Below, one piece after another: positions 2,732-33,013 of a stretch of 64,000 bases of DNA. Both the position numbers and the translations under genes were made by a program. Within the stretch, counting starts at the first letter, position 1. Each line of letters starts with the position of its first letter. The notes under the pieces were generated by a model. The model had not been told where the DNA came from, ran no database searches, and worked only from the letters and a program-made list of their open reading frames with translations. This DNA comes from Escherichia phage W115. Location of the stretch: the sequence record ON286974; one strand, 5' to 3'.

Positions 2732-3169
2732 TTATTTGTTGATAACGATCTGATTTCGGCGAATGGTAACATTACTCTTAGAGATGATCAGATCATCCGG
2801 CACTACGTTAGTTTTGTATGGTTGGAAGCGAACAAGCATCTGATTGCGTTTAGACCCTTCCTTAATCTTGATTTCCATCTGGATATTGTTGCCTACGTGA
2901 GCAACCGCAATTTCACCTTTATTCTCATAGACCCACTTGCTGGTAACGTCTCCAGCAAAAGCCTTAATAACTTGCAATGCTTCGTCGTATGCGGTAGAGC
3001 TGTGAACTTTCAGAAGGCCAGCCGTAGAAAGACGGGAGCAGGTGATCGCCGGAGATTGCCAAACATCAACATTAATTTGCTCAATCAGAGTAACACCGCC
3101 CTGATCAACTGCTTTGAATGCTTCGAACATTGCCTTTTTCATTGCTACGTGGTTTTTACGGAATTTCAT
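2732..3169 (-). CDS. hypothetical protein (145 aa)
   Basis: Track ORF; no recognisable motif. Confidence 0.5.
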   Translation of the reverse strand: MKFRKNHVAMKKAMFEAFKAVDQGGVTLIEQINVDVWQSPAITCSRLSTAGLLKVHSSTAYDEALQVIKAFAGDVTSKWVYENKGEIAVAHVGNNIQMEIKIKEGSKRNQMLVRFQPYKTNVVPDDLIISKSNVTIRRNQIVINK

Positions 3170-3215
3170 AATTAGTCACCTCTATTGATTAGTTATTCAG
3201 AATATTAATTACAAA

Positions 3216-3491
3216 TCAGGACATTGCCCGTTTGAATGCGTCCATTATAACAGTGTTATTTGGCATGTCAACACGTTTTTGAACTTTATTTTTAAATTTT
3301 TTGTTGATGTGGTGTTTACGATAAACAACCTTTTCACGGTTGGCGTAAGCCTCTCGTGCATCTTTTACCATCAACCATGCCTTAGCCGCATCTTGTCCGC
3401 TGATCCCGCCAATCTTTTTAGCAATATCAACAAAATTAAGACCGTGGTCTTCGCGTAGCATGTAAACCATTAACGCTGTTTTCTTGTCCAT
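3216..3491 (-). CDS. hypothetical protein, possible helix-turn-helix
   Basis: Track ORF 3216..3599 trimmed to internal ATG (MDKKTALMV...) which overlaps the stop of the upstream ORF in an ATGA-type junction. Confidence 0.4.
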   Translation of the reverse strand: MDKKTALMVYMLREDHGLNFVDIAKKIGGISGQDAAKAWLMVKDAREAYANREKVVYRKHHINKKFKNKVQKRVDMPNNTVIMDAFKRAMS

Positions 3492-19922: not shown

Positions 19923-20441
19923 TTAGTTATTTTTTAATTGCTCATCTTGCAATAGGGCAATCACATGCTGGCGATGTTCTTCCGATTGAGGCACACCGAA
20001 AAAGTTTGTTTTGTAGAAATACTCTAATCGGTCTTCTCGTGTGCTCTCTTCCATCATGATCGCGGGTAGTCCGAGATTTCGGAAACGTCGCTTTTCTGCT
20101 GGCGTAAAATCACTGTAATACAACATAGAATCATCATTACCAGCAATGCTAAACTCATCCTTCATAAAGGAGAATATTGCGTTTAAACGCTGTTTACCGT
20201 CCACGATTTCGATCTCATAGCGAGAGCCATCATCAATCTTAGCCATTGCGATAGCACCAACCGGAAAATCATTAATCAGGTTTTCGATAAACATACGTTT
20301 GTTTTCGGTGTCCCATACCAAAGGACGCTGATAATCTGGGTTCATGTTGATATAGCCATCTTCTAACCATGCATCATAAACAGAGATGACAAAGTTTTTA
20401 GTATTGGTATAGTAACGGCGTTTAGGCGTTAAACGGTTCAT
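19923..20441 (-). CDS. DUF262 / ParB-like domain protein (GmrSD N-terminal-like)
   Basis: Track ORF trimmed to ATG with AGGAGA RBS; NPDYQRPLVWD...FPVGAIAM...EIVDGKQRLNAIFSF matches the DUF262 signature (DGQQR-type). Confidence 0.65.
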   Translation of the reverse strand: MNRLTPKRRYYTNTKNFVISVYDAWLEDGYINMNPDYQRPLVWDTENKRMFIENLINDFPVGAIAMAKIDDGSRYEIEIVDGKQRLNAIFSFMKDEFSIAGNDDSMLYYSDFTPAEKRRFRNLGLPAIMMEESTREDRLEYFYKTNFFGVPQSEEHRQHVIALLQDEQLKNN

Positions 20442-20442
20442 G

Positions 20443-20775
20443 TTATAGTCTCCTGAATGGATCATCACGTAAATCAATATCTTTTAAGAACTCATCCCAT
20501 GAATGGCGGATATTGTTCTTAATTCTCCAGATAAGAGCAGGGATTGAACGCTCTCCCATCTGGAAGTATGGATCATATGATCCGTATGCCCAATATGCTA
20601 CTACAATTCCACAATCAGCGCAATAGTATTCTATTTCACTTGCTGGCGACCAAAGTCCATCAATATGATCGGTGATCTTGCTTTCGATGTTATGGCTATG
20701 ACAATCAGGGCAACGGATGCAATGACCTTGTTTATCGTAATTTGACGTTAGCGAATACTTAAACAATCTCATCAT
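20443..20775 (-). CDS. zinc-ribbon protein
   Basis: 110 aa; CIRCPDC ... CADC (two CxxC pairs); overlaps neighbours by 4 nt. Confidence 0.55.
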   Translation of the reverse strand: MMRLFKYSLTSNYDKQGHCIRCPDCHSHNIESKITDHIDGLWSPASEIEYYCADCGIVVAYWAYGSYDPYFQMGERSIPALIWRIKNNIRHSWDEFLKDIDLRDDPFRRL

Positions 20776-21488
20776 AGATCCTTATTGGCTTCAAATACTG
20801 CCTTTGCGAATCCTCGCGGGGTAAGTGACCTGATAGTCTTTGTTCTGGTTCCTTTCCCGCCTAGCTTAGAATGCTGTTTACTGTACCCTTTATTAATCTG
20901 CAACGGTTTCTTTTCTGGCATTATAAAGCCTTGTCCGGTCCATAAGCAAGTCTTTTTTGGGTACATATCACGGGCGGCAATATACTCAGGAAACGTAGGA
21001 TGTTTATCATCTTCCGGCAAATAACCGCCATATTCCCACGGATGGAACATGTAATCAGGCTTACGCCACATGCTAGAGATAACGCTTACAGGATTCTCTA
21101 TCATGTATGGAACTCCTAGCCATTCACCCAAATAAGCGGTTATTTTAGCTGCCCGTACATCATGAACTTGAATCAATGGTCCTTGTTCTCGTTTCTTTCG
21201 TTCAAAGTGCGCAGCGCCACTAACAGCTAAATTGGTGCACGGTGGGAATGCAAAGATAATATCCGGTTTCCCCCATTCAAGGTCCATTGCTCTTTCCAGC
21301 CAGTTCAAATCAATCCAGGTGTTTACATAGGTAATGTTTTGATGTTCAAATCTGGTATTATATTTTTTGTATGTACCGTGGTCGGCGTCATCCGCATTAA
21401 AGCAGACTACCTTATGACCTGCTTTAGCCCATTCTAGCCCCATTATCCCCGATCCGTCAAAGTTGCAGAATATTAATTTTTGTTTCAT
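20772..21488 (-). CDS. C5-cytosine methyltransferase-fold protein (minimal, atypical)
   Basis: 238 aa; motif I-like FDGSGIMG, motif IV-like FPPCTNLAVSG (PC dipeptide), motif VI-like IENPVS; no obvious target-recognition domain. Confidence 0.5.
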   Translation of the reverse strand: MKQKLIFCNFDGSGIMGLEWAKAGHKVVCFNADDADHGTYKKYNTRFEHQNITYVNTWIDLNWLERAMDLEWGKPDIIFAFPPCTNLAVSGAAHFERKKREQGPLIQVHDVRAAKITAYLGEWLGVPYMIENPVSVISSMWRKPDYMFHPWEYGGYLPEDDKHPTFPEYIAARDMYPKKTCLWTGQGFIMPEKKPLQINKGYSKQHSKLGGKGTRTKTIRSLTPRGFAKAVFEANKDL

Positions 21489-25848: not shown

Positions 25849-26016
25849 TTATTTGTTAATTTCTGGTGCGTTGCTCGGATAGTAACCTTCTTTAACACCA
25901 AGATATTTTGCAACCATTCCGGTGATCTTCTGTGCTACTACGATATCGAATTTCAGGTAGTCTTCACCGTGGTTTGCTACAATGTACGCTTCGCATTCTG
26001 CTTTAGTCTGGAACAT
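25849..26016 (-). CDS. small hypothetical protein (55 aa), duplicate of 22062..22229
   Basis: Track ORF trimmed: the N-terminal MLTGDHRSPI... is read-through of the PeSL; real start MFQTKAECEAYIVANHGEDYLKFDIVVAQKI... Confidence 0.5.
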   Translation of the reverse strand: MFQTKAECEAYIVANHGEDYLKFDIVVAQKITGMVAKYLGVKEGYYPSNAPEINK

Positions 26017-26047
26017 TTTTGATTCTCCTATATCTCGTTGGTATGTG

Positions 26048-26082
26048 TGCATTATAGGGGATCGGTGATCCCCTGTCAACAA
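26048..26082 (-). promoter_or_regulatory. PeSL early promoter cassette 10
   Basis: TTGACA - palindrome GGGGATCACCGATCCCC - TATAAT; conserved leader. Confidence 0.6.
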
Positions 26083-26963: not shown

Positions 26964-27143
26964 TTACATAACAATCACGCCAGCCGTTGAAAGTTGATGT
27001 TTCAACTGAGCATTTTCTGCTACCGTCAAATCAATGATTTCTTGTGACGCTGCAATCATATAGCCATTGGTGATATTGTTTTGCATCAGTTCAATGGTTT
27101 CTTCGTTGTAGCGGATTTTAGCGATGATTTCGTTGAAGTTCAT
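26964..27143 (-). CDS. small hypothetical protein (59 aa)
   Basis: Track ORF trimmed to remove promoter read-through (MLTGDHRSPI...); real start MNFNEIIAK... Confidence 0.45.
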   Translation of the reverse strand: MNFNEIIAKIRYNEETIELMQNNITNGYMIAASQEIIDLTVAENAQLKHQLSTAGVIVM

Positions 27144-27174
27144 AATTGATTCTCCTAGTTCGTTTCGGTATGTG

Positions 27175-27210
27175 TGTAGTATAGGGGATCGGTGATCCCC
27201 TGTCAACAAC
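27175..27210 (-). promoter_or_regulatory. PeSL early promoter cassette 11
   Basis: TTGACA - palindrome GGGGATCACCGATCCCC - TATACT; leader nearly identical to cassette 4. Confidence 0.6.
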
Positions 27211-27214
27211 TTTT

Positions 27215-27526
27215 TTAAAGTTTTTCCATGATAACGGTCATAATTATATCTTCTGCGCGAGCGGTCAGATTATCAGCGTCAGCATGTGGGCGGTTGGTTG
27301 TTACAGAGATAACACCGTTGCGCACTGGTTTGATGTTGATATCAAGATGATCCGCGAAACGTTCGCCAGTTACAGAATGAATTTTGGTGTTAAATTCTTT
27401 TGCCAGTGCCTTGCGAACTTCACGAATCAGGGTAGCGTTTTTCAGTTGGTTCTCCGCGCTCATGGTCTTCTGGGTGTTCATGGTTCCGTCGAAGTCAATC
27501 ATTGGCAGCGTTACGATGTATTTCAT
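27215..27526 (-). CDS. hypothetical protein (103 aa), paralog of 23918..24205
   Basis: Trimmed to ATG (MKYIVTLPM...); shared ...VRKALAKEFN... motif. Confidence 0.5.
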   Translation of the reverse strand: MKYIVTLPMIDFDGTMNTQKTMSAENQLKNATLIREVRKALAKEFNTKIHSVTGERFADHLDINIKPVRNGVISVTTNRPHADADNLTARAEDIIMTVIMEKL

Positions 27527-27569
27527 TTTTGATTCTCCGTTTAAGAAAGTGTGTTTCGTTTTGATGTGT

Positions 27570-27602
27570 GTAGTATAGGGGATCACCGATCCCCTGTCAA
27601 CA
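27570..27602 (-). promoter_or_regulatory. PeSL early promoter cassette 12
   Basis: TTGACA - palindrome GGGGATCGGTGATCCCC - TATACT. Confidence 0.6.
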
Positions 27603-27612
27603 ACTTTTTGAA

Positions 27613-28089
27613 TTATTTTTCTTGATGCTCGCGATCGTACTTTTCGAAATAAAATTCTACTGGCTGGTCGTGGATTGACAGCAAGCCAAAGCGTTTAGCC
27701 GCTCGCAATCCCATATTGCGCTGAATGTACTTCTGGAAGTTCTCGCGTATACACTTACGCCAGGATTCTAAGCCCATGCAGCTTTTATAAAGATTGCATT
27801 GCACACATGCCGGATTCATGTTATCAAGTATATCATGCTCCGGTTTATGCATTCCTACAACCTTATACTTCCACGATCCATCATCATTACGGGCAATTCG
27901 TCCATTTTCATCATAGACAACCTTTGAGCGTCGTAATACTGGTTTGATATGGTCTGCGTGCCAGCGATCCCCTAGTTCCTCGCCACAATAGGCACAACGT
28001 CCACCGTATTTCATTTTCAGGATCTGACGTTGCTCTTTCTTTGACAATTTTTTAGGTTTAGGGGCTTTCGCCCCTTCATTATCACACAT
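27613..28089 (-). CDS. HNH endonuclease
   Basis: 158 aa; CAYCG ... HADHIKP ... N ... CVQCN (HNH zinc-finger nuclease motif); start overlaps the ligase stop. Confidence 0.7.
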   Translation of the reverse strand: MCDNEGAKAPKPKKLSKKEQRQILKMKYGGRCAYCGEELGDRWHADHIKPVLRRSKVVYDENGRIARNDDGSWKYKVVGMHKPEHDILDNMNPACVQCNLYKSCMGLESWRKCIRENFQKYIQRNMGLRAAKRFGLLSIHDQPVEFYFEKYDREHQEK

Positions 28090-29578
28090 CGAATACCTCT
28101 TTTACTGTATTTGCAGCGGTCTTGTCGTAGCGAATACGTTTGATGATTGGGAGAAATAAAGAGAACTCCGGTTCATCTTCTTTACGTGATTTGCTGCGGA
28201 TATACCCGTTGCATGTCATCTCAATAACTTTTCCAATCAGGTTATGACGGTCAGCCCATAACATTTCTCGGTCGAGTTCATTTCGACGATCGAACGGAAT
28301 TACACGTTCAGTACCATCATCACCTTTTTCGGTTGTAGTGTCGGTTAATCCCGATCCGGTGTTAGTCATCATTCGTCCGCACGCACTACGGACAGTAAAA
28401 CCGCCTACCTTATTGGGGTCTTTACTATGCGGATATACATCAACAATTTCCGCGTCGAAGTCAATCACTTCTTTAAATTTAACCTGATCTTTACTACGGC
28501 GATCTTCAAATACACCATGTAAATTTTTAAGGATAATACCTTCTAATCCCATGTTTACATAGCGATGATATACTTCGCGAGCTTCGTCGATGTTGTTAAC
28601 TACAGTATTTTCGATTATCTGAACACGAGGATCGTTAAGTTCTTCAACAATCTGTTTTAGTTCTTCGAATCGATCTTTATATTGCTTCGTTGCTTTCTCG
28701 TTTCCGTAATACACATCACGGTCGATAACATCCCAGACAGTGTAAACAATACATTGGGCTTCTTCTTTTGGAATAGTTCCTTTAAGTGATTTGTTGAGTA
28801 TACCATTTCCGGTCTGACGATCTGCAACAACGGATTCTTTCACTGCTTCCGCTACTGGCGTTAATGGCATTTCCTCTTCTTCAAATATCCATGACAGAGT
28901 ACCATCATAAACGCTTTCAACGAAGTTCTGCGCTGGTGTTTGCGAAAGGGTAGGCATATATACCAATTCGCCATCTAGAACAATTCCACGGCCTCGTAGA
29001 CGCTCTAAAACCGCAAACAAATCATCAAGCCCTTGATAGGTATTACCTGAGCGGGTATAGATTGCTAATGTTTCCCCGTCAATATCAGCCATACCACGAG
29101 CGCCATCGCTTTTAAGTTGTGCATACGCCGGATACTTGATATTAGCAATAGTCTTATCAGAACATGACGATGCAAGGTGGCACGGTTGCTGAGGGATCAG
29201 TTTCTTCCATACCTTGTTTGCGGTGGTAGCGGAACAACCGCATTCCAGATCACGATTCAGGACCATCATTGCAACTTTAGCATCATCCTCTGACAAGCAA
29301 GTCAGAGTATCGGTAACTAGCTGTAATGCTGCATTACCAGTTACTTGACGCGTGGCAAGTTTATTTTTAAAGACCTGTAATGCACCGGATAAAGACAATA
29401 CAGACGAATAGCGAGACGGTTTATCGTATTTCTTTACGCCAAACGTAACCTGTTTGCAATATGCCAGATAAAAGCATTCTTTCAGCGTTTCATTGCTCGC
29501 GGATTCTTTCAGAATCTTTTCTTTCAGCGATGTTTTGTCTGTTGCTGCAAGCTGGTTAATGATATTAAGAATTGACAT
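28082..29578 (-). CDS. 30: ATP-dependent DNA ligase gp30
   Basis: About 498 aa; nucleotidyltransferase KxDG motif (LKSDGARG); size and position as T4 gene 30; start set to ATG with GAGGTG RBS (the track start is a GTG). Confidence 0.9.
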   Translation of the reverse strand: MSILNIINQLAATDKTSLKEKILKESASNETLKECFYLAYCKQVTFGVKKYDKPSRYSSVLSLSGALQVFKNKLATRQVTGNAALQLVTDTLTCLSEDDAKVAMMVLNRDLECGCSATTANKVWKKLIPQQPCHLASSCSDKTIANIKYPAYAQLKSDGARGMADIDGETLAIYTRSGNTYQGLDDLFAVLERLRGRGIVLDGELVYMPTLSQTPAQNFVESVYDGTLSWIFEEEEMPLTPVAEAVKESVVADRQTGNGILNKSLKGTIPKEEAQCIVYTVWDVIDRDVYYGNEKATKQYKDRFEELKQIVEELNDPRVQIIENTVVNNIDEAREVYHRYVNMGLEGIILKNLHGVFEDRRSKDQVKFKEVIDFDAEIVDVYPHSKDPNKVGGFTVRSACGRMMTNTGSGLTDTTTEKGDDGTERVIPFDRRNELDREMLWADRHNLIGKVIEMTCNGYIRSKSRKEDEPEFSLFLPIIKRIRYDKTAANTVKEVFDV

Positions 29579-30044
29579 TTTCACCTCGTTTTGTTAAACG
29601 TTCACGAATATCATTGAGGATACTACAAAATTCCGATTCAGTCAATATAGTCTTTAACGGATCAGTTCCACCTATGCTATGACGTAATTTCTTATTTCCG
29701 GTAGCAAGTAATGCTTTACAAAATTCTGGGTTATTCCGTGCCATCGTAACAAATGCCAGATGTACCAGTCTGTAATAATGCTCACTCATTCGATGAATCG
29801 GGCGACCCTGAAAATATAACATGTGATTCTCAATCTTTTCAGTTCTTCCGGTTCTTTTTGCTTTGCCACCGTGCATCAAAAAGATTTCTCTTTGTCTCTG
29901 AGGGTTCTTAAATCTTAGCCCCTGTAAAAATCCTTCTGTGCTGTTAATATCGCAGCCAAATAAACGGAATGGTCTTTTATTGAAATTACTCAATTCACCC
30001 GATGGATAAGGTCCACCCGCATAGATATCAATTTCAGAAGTCAT
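29565..30044 (-). CDS. NADAR (YbiA-like) domain protein
   Basis: 159 aa; IYAGGPYPSGELSNFNKRPF...STEGFLQGLRF...NPEFCKALLATGNKKL... matches the NADAR/DUF1768 pattern (F..G.LSNF ... sEh.fQA.KF ... LL.TG). Confidence 0.65.
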   Translation of the reverse strand: MTSEIDIYAGGPYPSGELSNFNKRPFRLFGCDINSTEGFLQGLRFKNPQRQREIFLMHGGKAKRTGRTEKIENHMLYFQGRPIHRMSEHYYRLVHLAFVTMARNNPEFCKALLATGNKKLRHSIGGTDPLKTILTESEFCSILNDIRERLTKRGENVNS

Positions 30045-30198
30045 TGAAACTAATCTCGCTAATCAGAGAGAACGGATCATAATCGTCATTAGGAATATCG
30101 ATAGTAATCGAATGAGGATTTACCCATACACCAAACTGGTCTTCTTCGGTGAATACTTCGGTATGGATTTCGTGGATGTTTACATTCATAGTTTTCAT
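30034..30198 (-). CDS. small hypothetical protein (54 aa)
   Basis: Trimmed to ATG (MKTMNVNIHEIH...) with AAGGAA RBS. Confidence 0.35.
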   Translation of the reverse strand: MKTMNVNIHEIHTEVFTEEDQFGVWVNPHSITIDIPNDDYDPFSLISEISFNDF

Positions 30199-30244
30199 AA
30201 TAAATTCCTTAATAATCAATAACTTACAAAATCATATAGCCAAA

Positions 30245-30275
30245 ATATAGGCGGGATTATTTCCCGCCGTTTAAA
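30245..30275 (-). terminator. intrinsic terminator downstream of gene 31
   Basis: ggcggga-aataat-cccgcc hairpin then U-run on the minus strand. Confidence 0.55.
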
Positions 30276-30279
30276 ATCA

Positions 30280-30603
30280 TTAACCGTAAACTACCACAAT
30301 ATTCTGTTTGTGCGTTACAGTCCATTTCAGGTCGATCTCTTCTTCCTTCTTAACGCCGTTAATAACGTCTGGATGAGGAACTTTATTCATCTTGCCATGT
30401 GGCAGTAGAACAGTTTTACCCAGCAATTCTTTATCTACCGTCTCGCCAATATCAATAATCTTACCTACCAGCGGAATCTCGCCCATAGTGCGCTTTTGCT
30501 CAATAATGATCCCCATAGAGCTTTTTACTTCTGTCCCTGCGCTTTCTGCTTTAGCTTCAATGATCACATAGTCACCAAGTGCTTTAGGAGTTTTAACGGT
30601 CAT
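30280..30603 (-). CDS. 31: co-chaperonin gp31 (GroES-like)
   Basis: 107 aa; GroES-like pattern (GDYVII...KSSMGIII...); position next to cd as in T4. Confidence 0.8.
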   Translation of the reverse strand: MTVKTPKALGDYVIIEAKAESAGTEVKSSMGIIIEQKRTMGEIPLVGKIIDIGETVDKELLGKTVLLPHGKMNKVPHPDVINGVKKEEEIDLKWTVTHKQNIVVVYG

Positions 30604-30644
30604 AATTTTATTACCTCTTCAAATCAATACAGTTTAATGATGAA

Positions 30645-30965
30645 TTATTTATAAATTTCGACGATCTGCGCTGGAGTCAGCCCGTCTACATTAATCAGAC
30701 TATCAAGCCCAAAACTACGGAAACCTTCAACTGCAATTTCATATACTGGCAAAGATGTTTCTGATTCTTTACGCGGTTTTTCAACATTCGGAACTAACCA
30801 CTTTTCGTATGTTTCAAACGGCATCAGTGCCGGATCTCGCGTGGCGATCATCTCACGGACAGTACCATCTTTCTTAGTAAACTGCAAAGAGTGAGTACCG
30901 ACCGAAAACATTTTCTTTAGTGCTTCACGAAGTGCGATATTATCAACTTGTTCAGTCATTATCAA
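30645..30965 (-). CDS. hypothetical protein (106 aa)
   Basis: Track ORF between cd and gene 31. Confidence 0.5.
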   Translation of the reverse strand: MIMTEQVDNIALREALKKMFSVGTHSLQFTKKDGTVREMIATRDPALMPFETYEKWLVPNVEKPRKESETSLPVYEIAVEGFRSFGLDSLINVDGLTPAQIVEIYK

Positions 30966-31458
30966 TACCCTTCAAATCAGTCAATAATGCTTTTGGAATA
31001 CGAGTAACCGTAATGTCGGCTTTATCCAAAATATCAGCCCAATCACGCCCACCATTTCGATCATATGTGTCGCAATAGTATAGATGTTTAATACCACTGT
31101 TTGCAATTGCTTTAGCGCAATCTGGACACGGTGAAGCAGTACACCACATACTAGCGCCTTCAATCGATACACCGCTACGGGCAGCAAACAAAATAGCATT
31201 TAATTCAGCATGGATCTCGTTTTTCTGTGACCATGCACTATGTTCTGGTCGTTTTTCTGGGATCATTTTTCCGTCATCATCCAGCCAACCGCTTTTATGT
31301 GCATGACAGCTACAATTTACTTGCCCTGCTGGAGTGCCATTAAATCCAGTAGAAATGATTCGCCCGTCTTTTTCGATCAGTGCGCCTACCTTCCACGAAA
31401 CGCATTTAGAGTTCTTTGCGATTAGATAAGCGATCTGCATGTAAGTTTGTGACAACAT
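30952..31458 (-). CDS. cd: dCMP deaminase
   Basis: 168 aa; zinc-binding HAELNAI and PCPDCAKAI motifs; high similarity to T4 Cd. Confidence 0.9.
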   Translation of the reverse strand: MLSQTYMQIAYLIAKNSKCVSWKVGALIEKDGRIISTGFNGTPAGQVNCSCHAHKSGWLDDDGKMIPEKRPEHSAWSQKNEIHAELNAILFAARSGVSIEGASMWCTASPCPDCAKAIANSGIKHLYYCDTYDRNGGRDWADILDKADITVTRIPKALLTDLKGIDND

Positions 31459-31479
31459 AATATAATCCTCACATATTAA

Positions 31480-31683
31480 TTAACCGTATACGCGAAAGTA
31501 TTCTACTGATCCGTCGCTATACTGTTTTACATTGAATGTATTCACGCCATGATCATTGCTCATAATGACATACACACTGCGACGCTCATCACTAAACGGG
31601 TTAACTGGTGCTGGTTCAATTTCAACATTAAAACCACGTTTAGCAAGTGCTTCGCCTAATTGCTTGAGTTTATCGGTAAACAT
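31480..31683 (-). CDS. hypothetical protein (67 aa)
   Basis: Track ORF. Confidence 0.45.
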   Translation of the reverse strand: MFTDKLKQLGEALAKRGFNVEIEPAPVNPFSDERRSVYVIMSNDHGVNTFNVKQYSDGSVEYFRVYG

Positions 31684-32582
31684 TAAAAGTCTCCGTAGTT
31701 AACCTGAAAACATTCTACACCAATTGAGCGATACATGTCAACCACTTGATCACGGTCATCTACTGCCAAAACAACATGATATCGCGGTGCAATTTCAGAG
31801 AAGAAAATCTCTTTCTTTACTTCATGATCAGGACGACGATCATTAGTTTCACGTTGAAAGTGATCACTAGGTTCAATACCCTGTTCACGCAACCATTGCA
31901 GAGTATCTTCTTCGCAAACATCCTCACGACCTGAGCATGTAATGATACGATAGCCATTATCACGATACAGTTTAAGCATTTCGATCACTTGCGGACGTGG
32001 TTTATCTTCTTTGACCTTTGTCCAGTCAAACGGATGACGACCGCCCTTATCCGCTAATGTTCCATCAATATCAAAGATCACTGCCTTTGGCAGCATAGTA
32101 TTCGGTTTGTATACTTCTTGACCCATATATTCCTGCATCAGATAAAATTGGTTGCGCAAATGAGAAAGTGGAATTGCTTTCTCGCCGCGATAGAAATTAC
32201 GTTTCTTTAGTGTCTCAAATGATTCATTGAACACTTGTTCAGTATACACCGCGTTAAATTCTTTTGCAAGTTCTTTGTAGAATACACGATGTTTTTCTTT
32301 CAGGTTGGTATCGGAGATAATGATACTCAATCCGCGTGATAGAGTCTCACGAGCAATCATTCTCTGAATAGACTCTACCAGCTTTTCTTTTTCCTTAGTA
32401 TACTTGTATTTCAAATGTGAGTAAACACCAAACAACATAAGACGAAGATCATCACGATTCACATTACGATAATTACTAAACCGTTTACATGTTTCCATCG
32501 CCCATGTAGTTTTACCGGACCCAGAACAACCAACGGTTAAAATCACTTCACATTTCGGCATTATTTCTCCTTCGGTTTGCAC
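31683..32582 (-). CDS. pseT: polynucleotide 5'-kinase / 3'-phosphatase
   Basis: 299 aa; N-terminal P-loop GCSGSGKT and C-terminal HAD phosphatase motif FDIDGTLA; size as T4 Pnk. Confidence 0.9.
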   Translation of the reverse strand: MQTEGEIMPKCEVILTVGCSGSGKTTWAMETCKRFSNYRNVNRDDLRLMLFGVYSHLKYKYTKEKEKLVESIQRMIARETLSRGLSIIISDTNLKEKHRVFYKELAKEFNAVYTEQVFNESFETLKKRNFYRGEKAIPLSHLRNQFYLMQEYMGQEVYKPNTMLPKAVIFDIDGTLADKGGRHPFDWTKVKEDKPRPQVIEMLKLYRDNGYRIITCSGREDVCEEDTLQWLREQGIEPSDHFQRETNDRRPDHEVKKEIFFSEIAPRYHVVLAVDDRDQVVDMYRSIGVECFQVNYGDF

Positions 32583-33013
32583 CGTTCCTCATTAAGTTCT
32601 TTTCGATAATAACACATGATCAACTTACTTTCAAGTGTATATCTCTTAATATCCGCAAGCCAGACTCTGAATTTTTGGGAGTCCTCCCACGACATAGAAA
32701 CTCTAGGTTTACCGTCTATTGTATCAACTTTCAGGTCAATGTCAACTTTTTCTATTGGTGCTGGTAGTGGAGGATGTAATTTCGGTTCCTGTGAATAATG
32801 GTCCATTGTACACGAAGAAAGCGCAAATACAATAGGCACAGCGAAGACATGGATTATGGCGGTCTGAAAATTCTTATGTGCTTTCTTAAACATCCAGTGT
32901 ATCACGAAAATTGAAAACACCATCAGGATAATAATGCTTGCACCTATCCACAGATAATCAACCAGATTAAAATTGCTTATCTGCTCTTGTGTAGACAATA
33001 TTTCTATGCTCAT
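32561..33013 (-). CDS. membrane protein (two predicted TM helices)
   Basis: 150 aa; hydrophobic segments IGASIIILMVFSIFVIHWMF and IIHVFAVPIVFALSS. Confidence 0.5.
   Translation of the reverse strand: MSIEILSTQEQISNFNLVDYLWIGASIIILMVFSIFVIHWMFKKAHKNFQTAIIHVFAVPIVFALSSCTMDHYSQEPKLHPPLPAPIEKVDIDLKVDTIDGKPRVSMSWEDSQKFRVWLADIKRYTLESKLIMCYYRKELNEERCKPKEK

Follow-up and report, generated by a model that had tools for sequence, protein, structure and literature searches.

The gene directly upstream of the DNA ligase gene in this Krischvirus raises the question of what a 159-aa protein resembling the NADAR proteins does in a lytic phage, and whether its target is ADP-ribose on phage DNA. The window (the whole stretch of DNA analyzed, 64,000 nucleotides) comes from a phage with 99.1% identity to phage kaaroe and 97.8% identity to RB49 (over 6 kb). 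The best explanation, which is held here at a probability of roughly 0.78, is that the gene encodes an RB49-type (Krischvirus) AdfN, which would serve as an orphan antitoxin by removing DarT1-installed ADP-ribose from guanine in phage DNA. By homology to its T4 ortholog, the product of gene 30.3, guanine-ADPr in DNA may be ascribed to the window protein as its substrate, along with a role against DarTG1. The features on which the argument draws are listed in Table 1.

Table 1. Positions of the features discussed, numbered from the first nucleotide of the window.
Feature	Position	Strand	Evidence or remark
Second ADP-ribosyltransferase, 274 aa	16368..17192	minus	PF03496, E = 5.9e-16; RB49p183, annotated as resembling the C-terminal portion of T4 Alt
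Alt-like ADP-ribosyltransferase, 683 aa	17271..19322	minus	PF03496, E = 2e-9; RB49p184, annotated alt
Near-consensus sigma-70 promoter, TTGACA-17-TATACT (11/12)	27572..27600	minus	Immediately downstream of the HNH gene
HNH endonuclease	27613..28089	minus	PF01844; PHROG 2118, E = 1.2e-54; RB49 annotation
ATP-dependent DNA ligase, gene 30	28082..29578	minus	PF01068, E = 2.8e-22; PHROG 114; 41% identity to T4 gp30
gp30.3/AdfN ortholog (adfN), phage-type NADAR, 159 aa	29565..30044	minus	ATG-to-stop open reading frame
C-terminal helix of AdfN, residues 136-152, TESEFCSILNDIRERLT	29589..29639	minus	Intact; predicted helix with high pLDDT
His122 codon (CAT)	29679..29681	minus	Last-strand His marking phage NADARs, in place of YbiA Glu/DarG1 Asp
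Arg44 codon (AGA)	29913..29915	minus	Equivalent to phosphate-binding K43 of AdfN-T4, K50 of PnNADAR, and K95 of E. coli C7 NADAR
Glu37 codon (GAA)	29934..29936	minus	Equivalent to catalytic E36 of AdfN-T4, E43 of PnNADAR, and E88 of E. coli C7 NADAR
RB49 ‘31.-1’ open reading frame, 54 aa, ATG at 30198	30034..30198	minus	PHROG 15277, unknown function
GC-rich hairpin GGCGGGAAATAATCCCGCC followed by a T-run	30250..30268	minus	Directly after gene 31

The 159-aa open reading frame described in the first-pass annotation is borne out: it runs from ATG to stop, and its translation includes the strings GGPYPSGELSNFNKRPF, STEGFLQGLRF, and ALLATGNKKL. The protein matches PF08010 (“Phage_30_3”) at profile positions 2-138 of 138 (E = 1.2e-38, with 132.5 bits against a gathering score of 36 bits) and PHROG 652 (E = 2.5e-45). 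RB49 gp30.3 has the same amino acid sequence (100% identity), and the five nucleotide differences between the two coding sequences are all synonymous. Homologs of the protein were found by tblastn in 1509 phage records and, at E ≤ 1e-3, in 973 representative clusters of a library of 1.8 billion proteins. The open reading frame is a genuine conserved gene, far beyond what chance would produce.

The relationship to NADAR proteins was established by fold and profile comparison because the window protein has no direct match to the Pfam NADAR family. PF08719 did not match it at E ≤ 0.01, the NCBIfam NADAR anti-phage model gave only a sub-threshold match (E = 0.023), and a single-sequence search of PDB sequences returned no NADAR. 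A match to DltA in that search (E = 3.8e-4) was considered spurious and was superseded by the profile and fold searches. On the other hand, a profile built from 86 members of the gp30.3 family matched E. coli YbiA (2B3W, E = 5.6e-4) as well as the Phytophthora NADAR (8BAU), with the SNF motif, the Glu, and the Lys aligned in register, and 22 of the 86 members match PF08719 individually (best E = 1.1e-6). The AlphaFold2 model of the window protein (pLDDT 94.2, pTM 0.89) matched 2B3W (E = 3.5e-6) and 8BAU (E = 3.9e-3) in a Foldseek search of the PDB, in which every other match had E > 1. The matches in a viral structure library were gp30.3-type models (TM 0.87-0.92), followed by dozens of annotated NADAR proteins. 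The modeled structure and the family profile make a solid case for the YbiA/NADAR three-dimensional fold, a link that is remote yet firm. The first-pass annotation had read a NADAR/YbiA-like pattern from the sequence and proposed PF08719 as the check; the pattern stands at the level of the fold, the family profile, and the relatives that reach PF08719, but not as a match of the window protein itself.

Several long members of the gp30.3 family (P0019, P0021, P0058, P0070, and P0061) contain either two tandem gp30.3 domains or fused domains, the partners being a calcineurin-like (metallo)phosphoesterase, thymidine kinase, BspA-type LRRs, and Lgt. These fusion partners were considered as a clue to function and set aside, being heterogeneous as well as uninformative; some may be fusions of gene calls.

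Gene 30.3 of T4 now bears the name adfN, which stands for anti-DarT factor NADAR (Johannesman et al., Nat Commun 2025, PMC11825919), and “phage NADAR (gp30.3)” is one of four NADAR families, its hallmark being a His at the position occupied by Glu in YbiA and by Asp in DarG1 (PMC11125620, PMC12945103). T4 and T2 mutants that lack adfN no longer form plaques on DarTG1 hosts, and expression of AdfN-T4 rescues RB69, whose own allele is shortened by 15 residues (PMC11825919). Transposon sequencing (HIDEN-SEQ) likewise found T4 30.3 to be conditionally essential on DarTG1 hosts. Purified AdfN-T4 strips ADP-ribose from DarT1-modified DNA, an activity that is impaired by E36A and K43A, and it neither binds DarT1 nor acts on DarT2 (thymidine) damage (PMC11825919). 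In vitro, the T4 enzyme hydrolyzes guanine-ADPr and leaves thymidine-ADPr intact (PMC11125620). An anti-DarTG1 role has been demonstrated only for T4/T2 AdfN and two unrelated phage NADARs, and a literature search found no test of RB49 or any Krischvirus against DarTG.

The window protein shares PF08010 with AdfN-T4 and aligns with it almost from end to end (residues 3-150 against 2-152, 38% identity, BLASTP E = 2e-30). The core-only NADAR fold, the catalytic Glu, the phage-type His, and the C-terminal helix are common to both proteins, and the two genes are syntenic orthologs that occupy the same slot in the cd-31-30.x-ligase (30) block of the T4-like genome. Glu occupies the Glu37 column in 158 of the 161 representatives of the family, and the profile search placed this residue opposite the corresponding Glu of both YbiA and 8BAU. 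His122, within the motif LRHSIGG, falls in the model at a predicted strand (residues 119-121) and the residue that follows it, and is His in 159 of the 161 representatives. Arg85 and Glu138 are near-invariant as well, such that each of these four residues is kept in at least 158 of 161. The C-terminal helix aligns with the end of AdfN-T4, and the open reading frame continues for seven residues past the T4 end. In RB69, loss of this helix correlates with DarTG1 sensitivity (PMC11825919). The first-pass annotation had suggested that the protein erases ADP-ribosylation of guanine as an anti-defense function, and this suggestion gains support from the activity of AdfN-T4, to which the window protein is probably a functional counterpart as a full-length homolog that retains the fold, Glu37, and His122.

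The window enzyme would be a minimal, core-only ADP-ribosyl-glycohydrolase of the NADAR fold. Upon infection of a DarTG1 host, DarT1 would move ADP-ribose from NAD+ to the N2 position of guanine in phage DNA, and replication would be blocked. The phage enzyme would bind the ADP-ribose moiety, with Arg44 and Arg85 likely contacting the diphosphate and Glu37 and His122 flanking the distal ribose, and would hydrolyze the N-glycosidic bond between ribose and guanine, which would yield unmodified DNA and allow replication to proceed. As an orphan antitoxin, it may act without binding the toxin.

It counts against this explanation that the window protein on its own does not reach PF08719. Two differences from the characterized AdfN-T4 also count against it, namely the identity of only 38% (62% of the residues of the window protein differ) and the presence of Arg44 in place of the phosphate-binding Lys43. 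Among the 161 family representatives, the position is Lys in 147, Arg in 10, and another residue in 4. The substitution is worth flagging because the K95R mutant of the E. coli C7 NADAR (DarG1-type) hydrolyzes G-ADPr in vitro but does not rescue cells from DarT1 in vivo. The K43A mutant of AdfN-T4 rescues only in part (PMC11825919). Together with the minority status of Arg, these mutants speak for an alternative, which we regard as unlikely, that the Lys-to-Arg change leaves the RB49-type allele attenuated or ineffective against DarT1 in vivo, either as a weakened counter-defense or as one tuned to a different DarT-like toxin. However, Arg at position 44 recurs in several sub-lineages, among them Krischvirus and the T4-like phages of Acinetobacter, where the Arg-bearing proteins are otherwise fully conserved and interleaved with Lys-bearing relatives. 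Such recurrence among Lys-bearing neighbors points to a tolerated, recurrent polymorphism, and its independent appearance in otherwise conserved proteins argues that the variant is tolerated under selection. The purely synonymous divergence of adfN between RB49 and the window phage also argues against attenuation.

The AdfN reading must also accommodate the genomic background of the gene. AdfN-T4 is fully effective only during T-even infections (PMC11825919), and RB49 DNA contains unmodified cytosine, unlike the glucosyl-hmC of T4 (PMC4041780). Moreover, the window adfN directly abuts the ligase gene without 30.1 and 30.2 in between, and no homologs of T4 30.1, 30.2, 30.4-30.9, or rIII were detected within the 64-kb window. 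For the internal T4 gene 30.3’, no minus-strand open reading frame of ≥ 40 aa was found in another frame inside the window adfN. The T-even dependence of AdfN-T4, set beside the unmodified cytosine of RB49 and its lack of 30.1/30.2, counts against the AdfN reading, and the RB49-type AdfN might behave differently from AdfN-T4 through Arg44 and the unmodified-DNA background. Given the unmodified cytosine, the missing 30.1/30.2 neighbors, and Arg at the phosphate-binding position, a tentative and somewhat doubtful reading is that the RB49-type AdfN works on ordinary DNA without the T-even-specific potentiating factor needed by AdfN-T4. If so, it would, for example, counteract DarT1 in E. coli cells that are not infected and rescue phages outside the T-even group, and a comparison with AdfN-T4 would show whether the T-even dependence lies in DNA modification or in a protein partner. 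For dissecting this dependence, a phage whose DNA is unmodified and whose AdfN naturally has Arg in place of Lys provides a convenient comparison.

The window protein also differs from the NADAR antitoxins of DarTG1 systems. With 159 aa, it is shorter than DarG1 proteins such as the Geobacter lovleyi NADAR (8BAT) and the E. coli C7 NADAR (~230 aa), as it lacks their N-terminal extension, and it has His122 at the last-strand position where DarG1 (BC4488-type NADAR) has a catalytic Asp. There is no adjacent darT1; the gene is an orphan in a lytic phage, with 31.-1 and the ligase gene as neighbors. In this respect, it resembles AdfN-Bas32 and AdfN-Bas60 (from T5-like phages and Vequintavirinae), which are phage-encoded orphan NADARs that counter DarTG1, although those proteins belong to other, independently acquired NADAR branches and need no phage co-factor, whereas the window protein falls within the gp30.3 branch.

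The protein could instead be a competent NADAR whose main substrate is not DarT1-modified DNA, an improbable alternative in which it would act on G-ADPr RNA or on soluble ADP-ribose derivatives generated by host immune systems or by the phage’s own NAD-consuming enzymes. Every NADAR family tested, including that of T4, removes G-ADPr from RNA in vitro (PMC12945103), and two ADP-ribosyltransferases are encoded approximately 10-13 kb away in the same orientation. Both enzymes, already reported in the first-pass annotation, match PF03496 and are annotated as such in RB49, and the theme is not new, as the co-occurrence and early co-expression of NADAR proteins and ADP-ribosyltransferases in T4-like phages were noted in 2022 (PMC9503650). 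However, loss of the T4 ortholog abolishes growth specifically on DarTG1 hosts and leaves growth on K-12 unimpaired, and the gene has no conserved adjacent partner for salvage or RNA repair. Alt-type ADP-ribosyltransferases, such as T4 Alt, modify arginines in proteins, and the literature examined does not report the protein-arginine linkage among NADAR substrates.

A YbiA-like N-glycosidase acting on riboflavin-pathway intermediates, which the first-pass annotation had offered as its alternative, is very improbable: YbiA (2B3W) is the best profile and Foldseek match among solved structures and has a similar size and only the core domain, but its identity to the window protein is approximately 20%, and the reading is disfavored because the last-strand Glu that defines the YbiA subfamily is replaced by His122, as in nearly all gp30.3 members, while the biological context also differs (a lytic-phage gene with riboflavin genes absent nearby) and the T4 ortholog has a demonstrated role in DNA de-ADP-ribosylation.

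Gene 31 (co-chaperonin) ends at 30280 on the minus strand and is followed by the hairpin, which is similar to the stem-loop half of the promoter-terminator elements (‘PeSL’) of RB49/phi1; no good sigma-70 promoter was found after the hairpin, and consensus matches in the region scanned upstream of adfN were no more common than in shuffled sequences. The stop of 31.-1 overlaps the start of adfN by 11 nt, the ligase gene begins within the 3’ end of adfN (RBS GAGGTGA and ATG at 29578, 14-nt overlap), and the HNH gene overlaps the ligase stop by 8 nt. These overlaps suggest that 31.-1, 30.3/adfN, ligase gene 30, and the HNH gene (27613..30198, minus strand) are translationally coupled. The next early transcription unit probably begins at the promoter that lies downstream of the HNH gene.

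Functional coupling of AdfN to the ligase was considered and rejected. The adjacency of adfN and ligase was seen only in the T4-like synteny block of T4, RB49, and an Acinetobacter T4-like phage, the last of which also has an ADP-ribosyltransferase beside the ligase, whereas it is absent from Aeromonas phage AS4, Sinorhizobium phage phiM12, and Shewanella phage Thanatos-2. The ligase uses ATP rather than NAD, and the adjacency is not conserved; therefore, the neighborhood adds nothing to the functional inference. The adjacency is inherited T4-type synteny and not conserved coupling. The location directly upstream of the ligase gene, with the HNH gene next, is thus as first described, but it does not carry the functional weight that had been placed on it. 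In Aeromonas phage AS4, the gp30.3 homolog (3001..3450) lies inside a cluster of 15 tRNA genes.

The function of gp30.3 and its NADAR branch have already been published, and the window gene is a member of a known family. The value as a discovery is small, as the branch was recognized bioinformatically years ago and the T4 member has been characterized both genetically and biochemically. The value lies in annotation, as a probable AdfN can now be named where RB49-like phages, and approximately 1500 phage records, have a “hypothetical protein 30.3”. Such labeling is useful for choosing therapeutic phages against DarTG1-bearing strains.

Several other observations concern the wider window. Next to the Alt gene, a 184-aa open reading frame (19923..20477, minus strand) matches the N-terminal domain of GmrSD type IV restriction enzymes (PF03235, E = 6e-20). 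This GmrSD_N/DUF262 domain stands alone in a lytic phage and is flanked on its other side by an open reading frame (20772..21488) that is annotated in RB49 as a DNA methyltransferase and has no Pfam match at 1e-3. Around the ligase, comparison of window positions 27000..33000 with RB49 positions 121700..129045 revealed that this stretch is 1.0-1.3 kb shorter in the window and in kaaroe than in RB49 and several relatives, which indicates an indel of small open reading frames in a hyperplastic region. Furthermore, two small open reading frames with TTG starts (25849..26082 and 26964..27209, minus strand) share a near-identical N-terminal string (MLTGDHRSPI[M/L]HTY..), a similarity suggesting that the hyperplastic region on the downstream side of the HNH gene contains a repeated sequence of intergenic or leader type.
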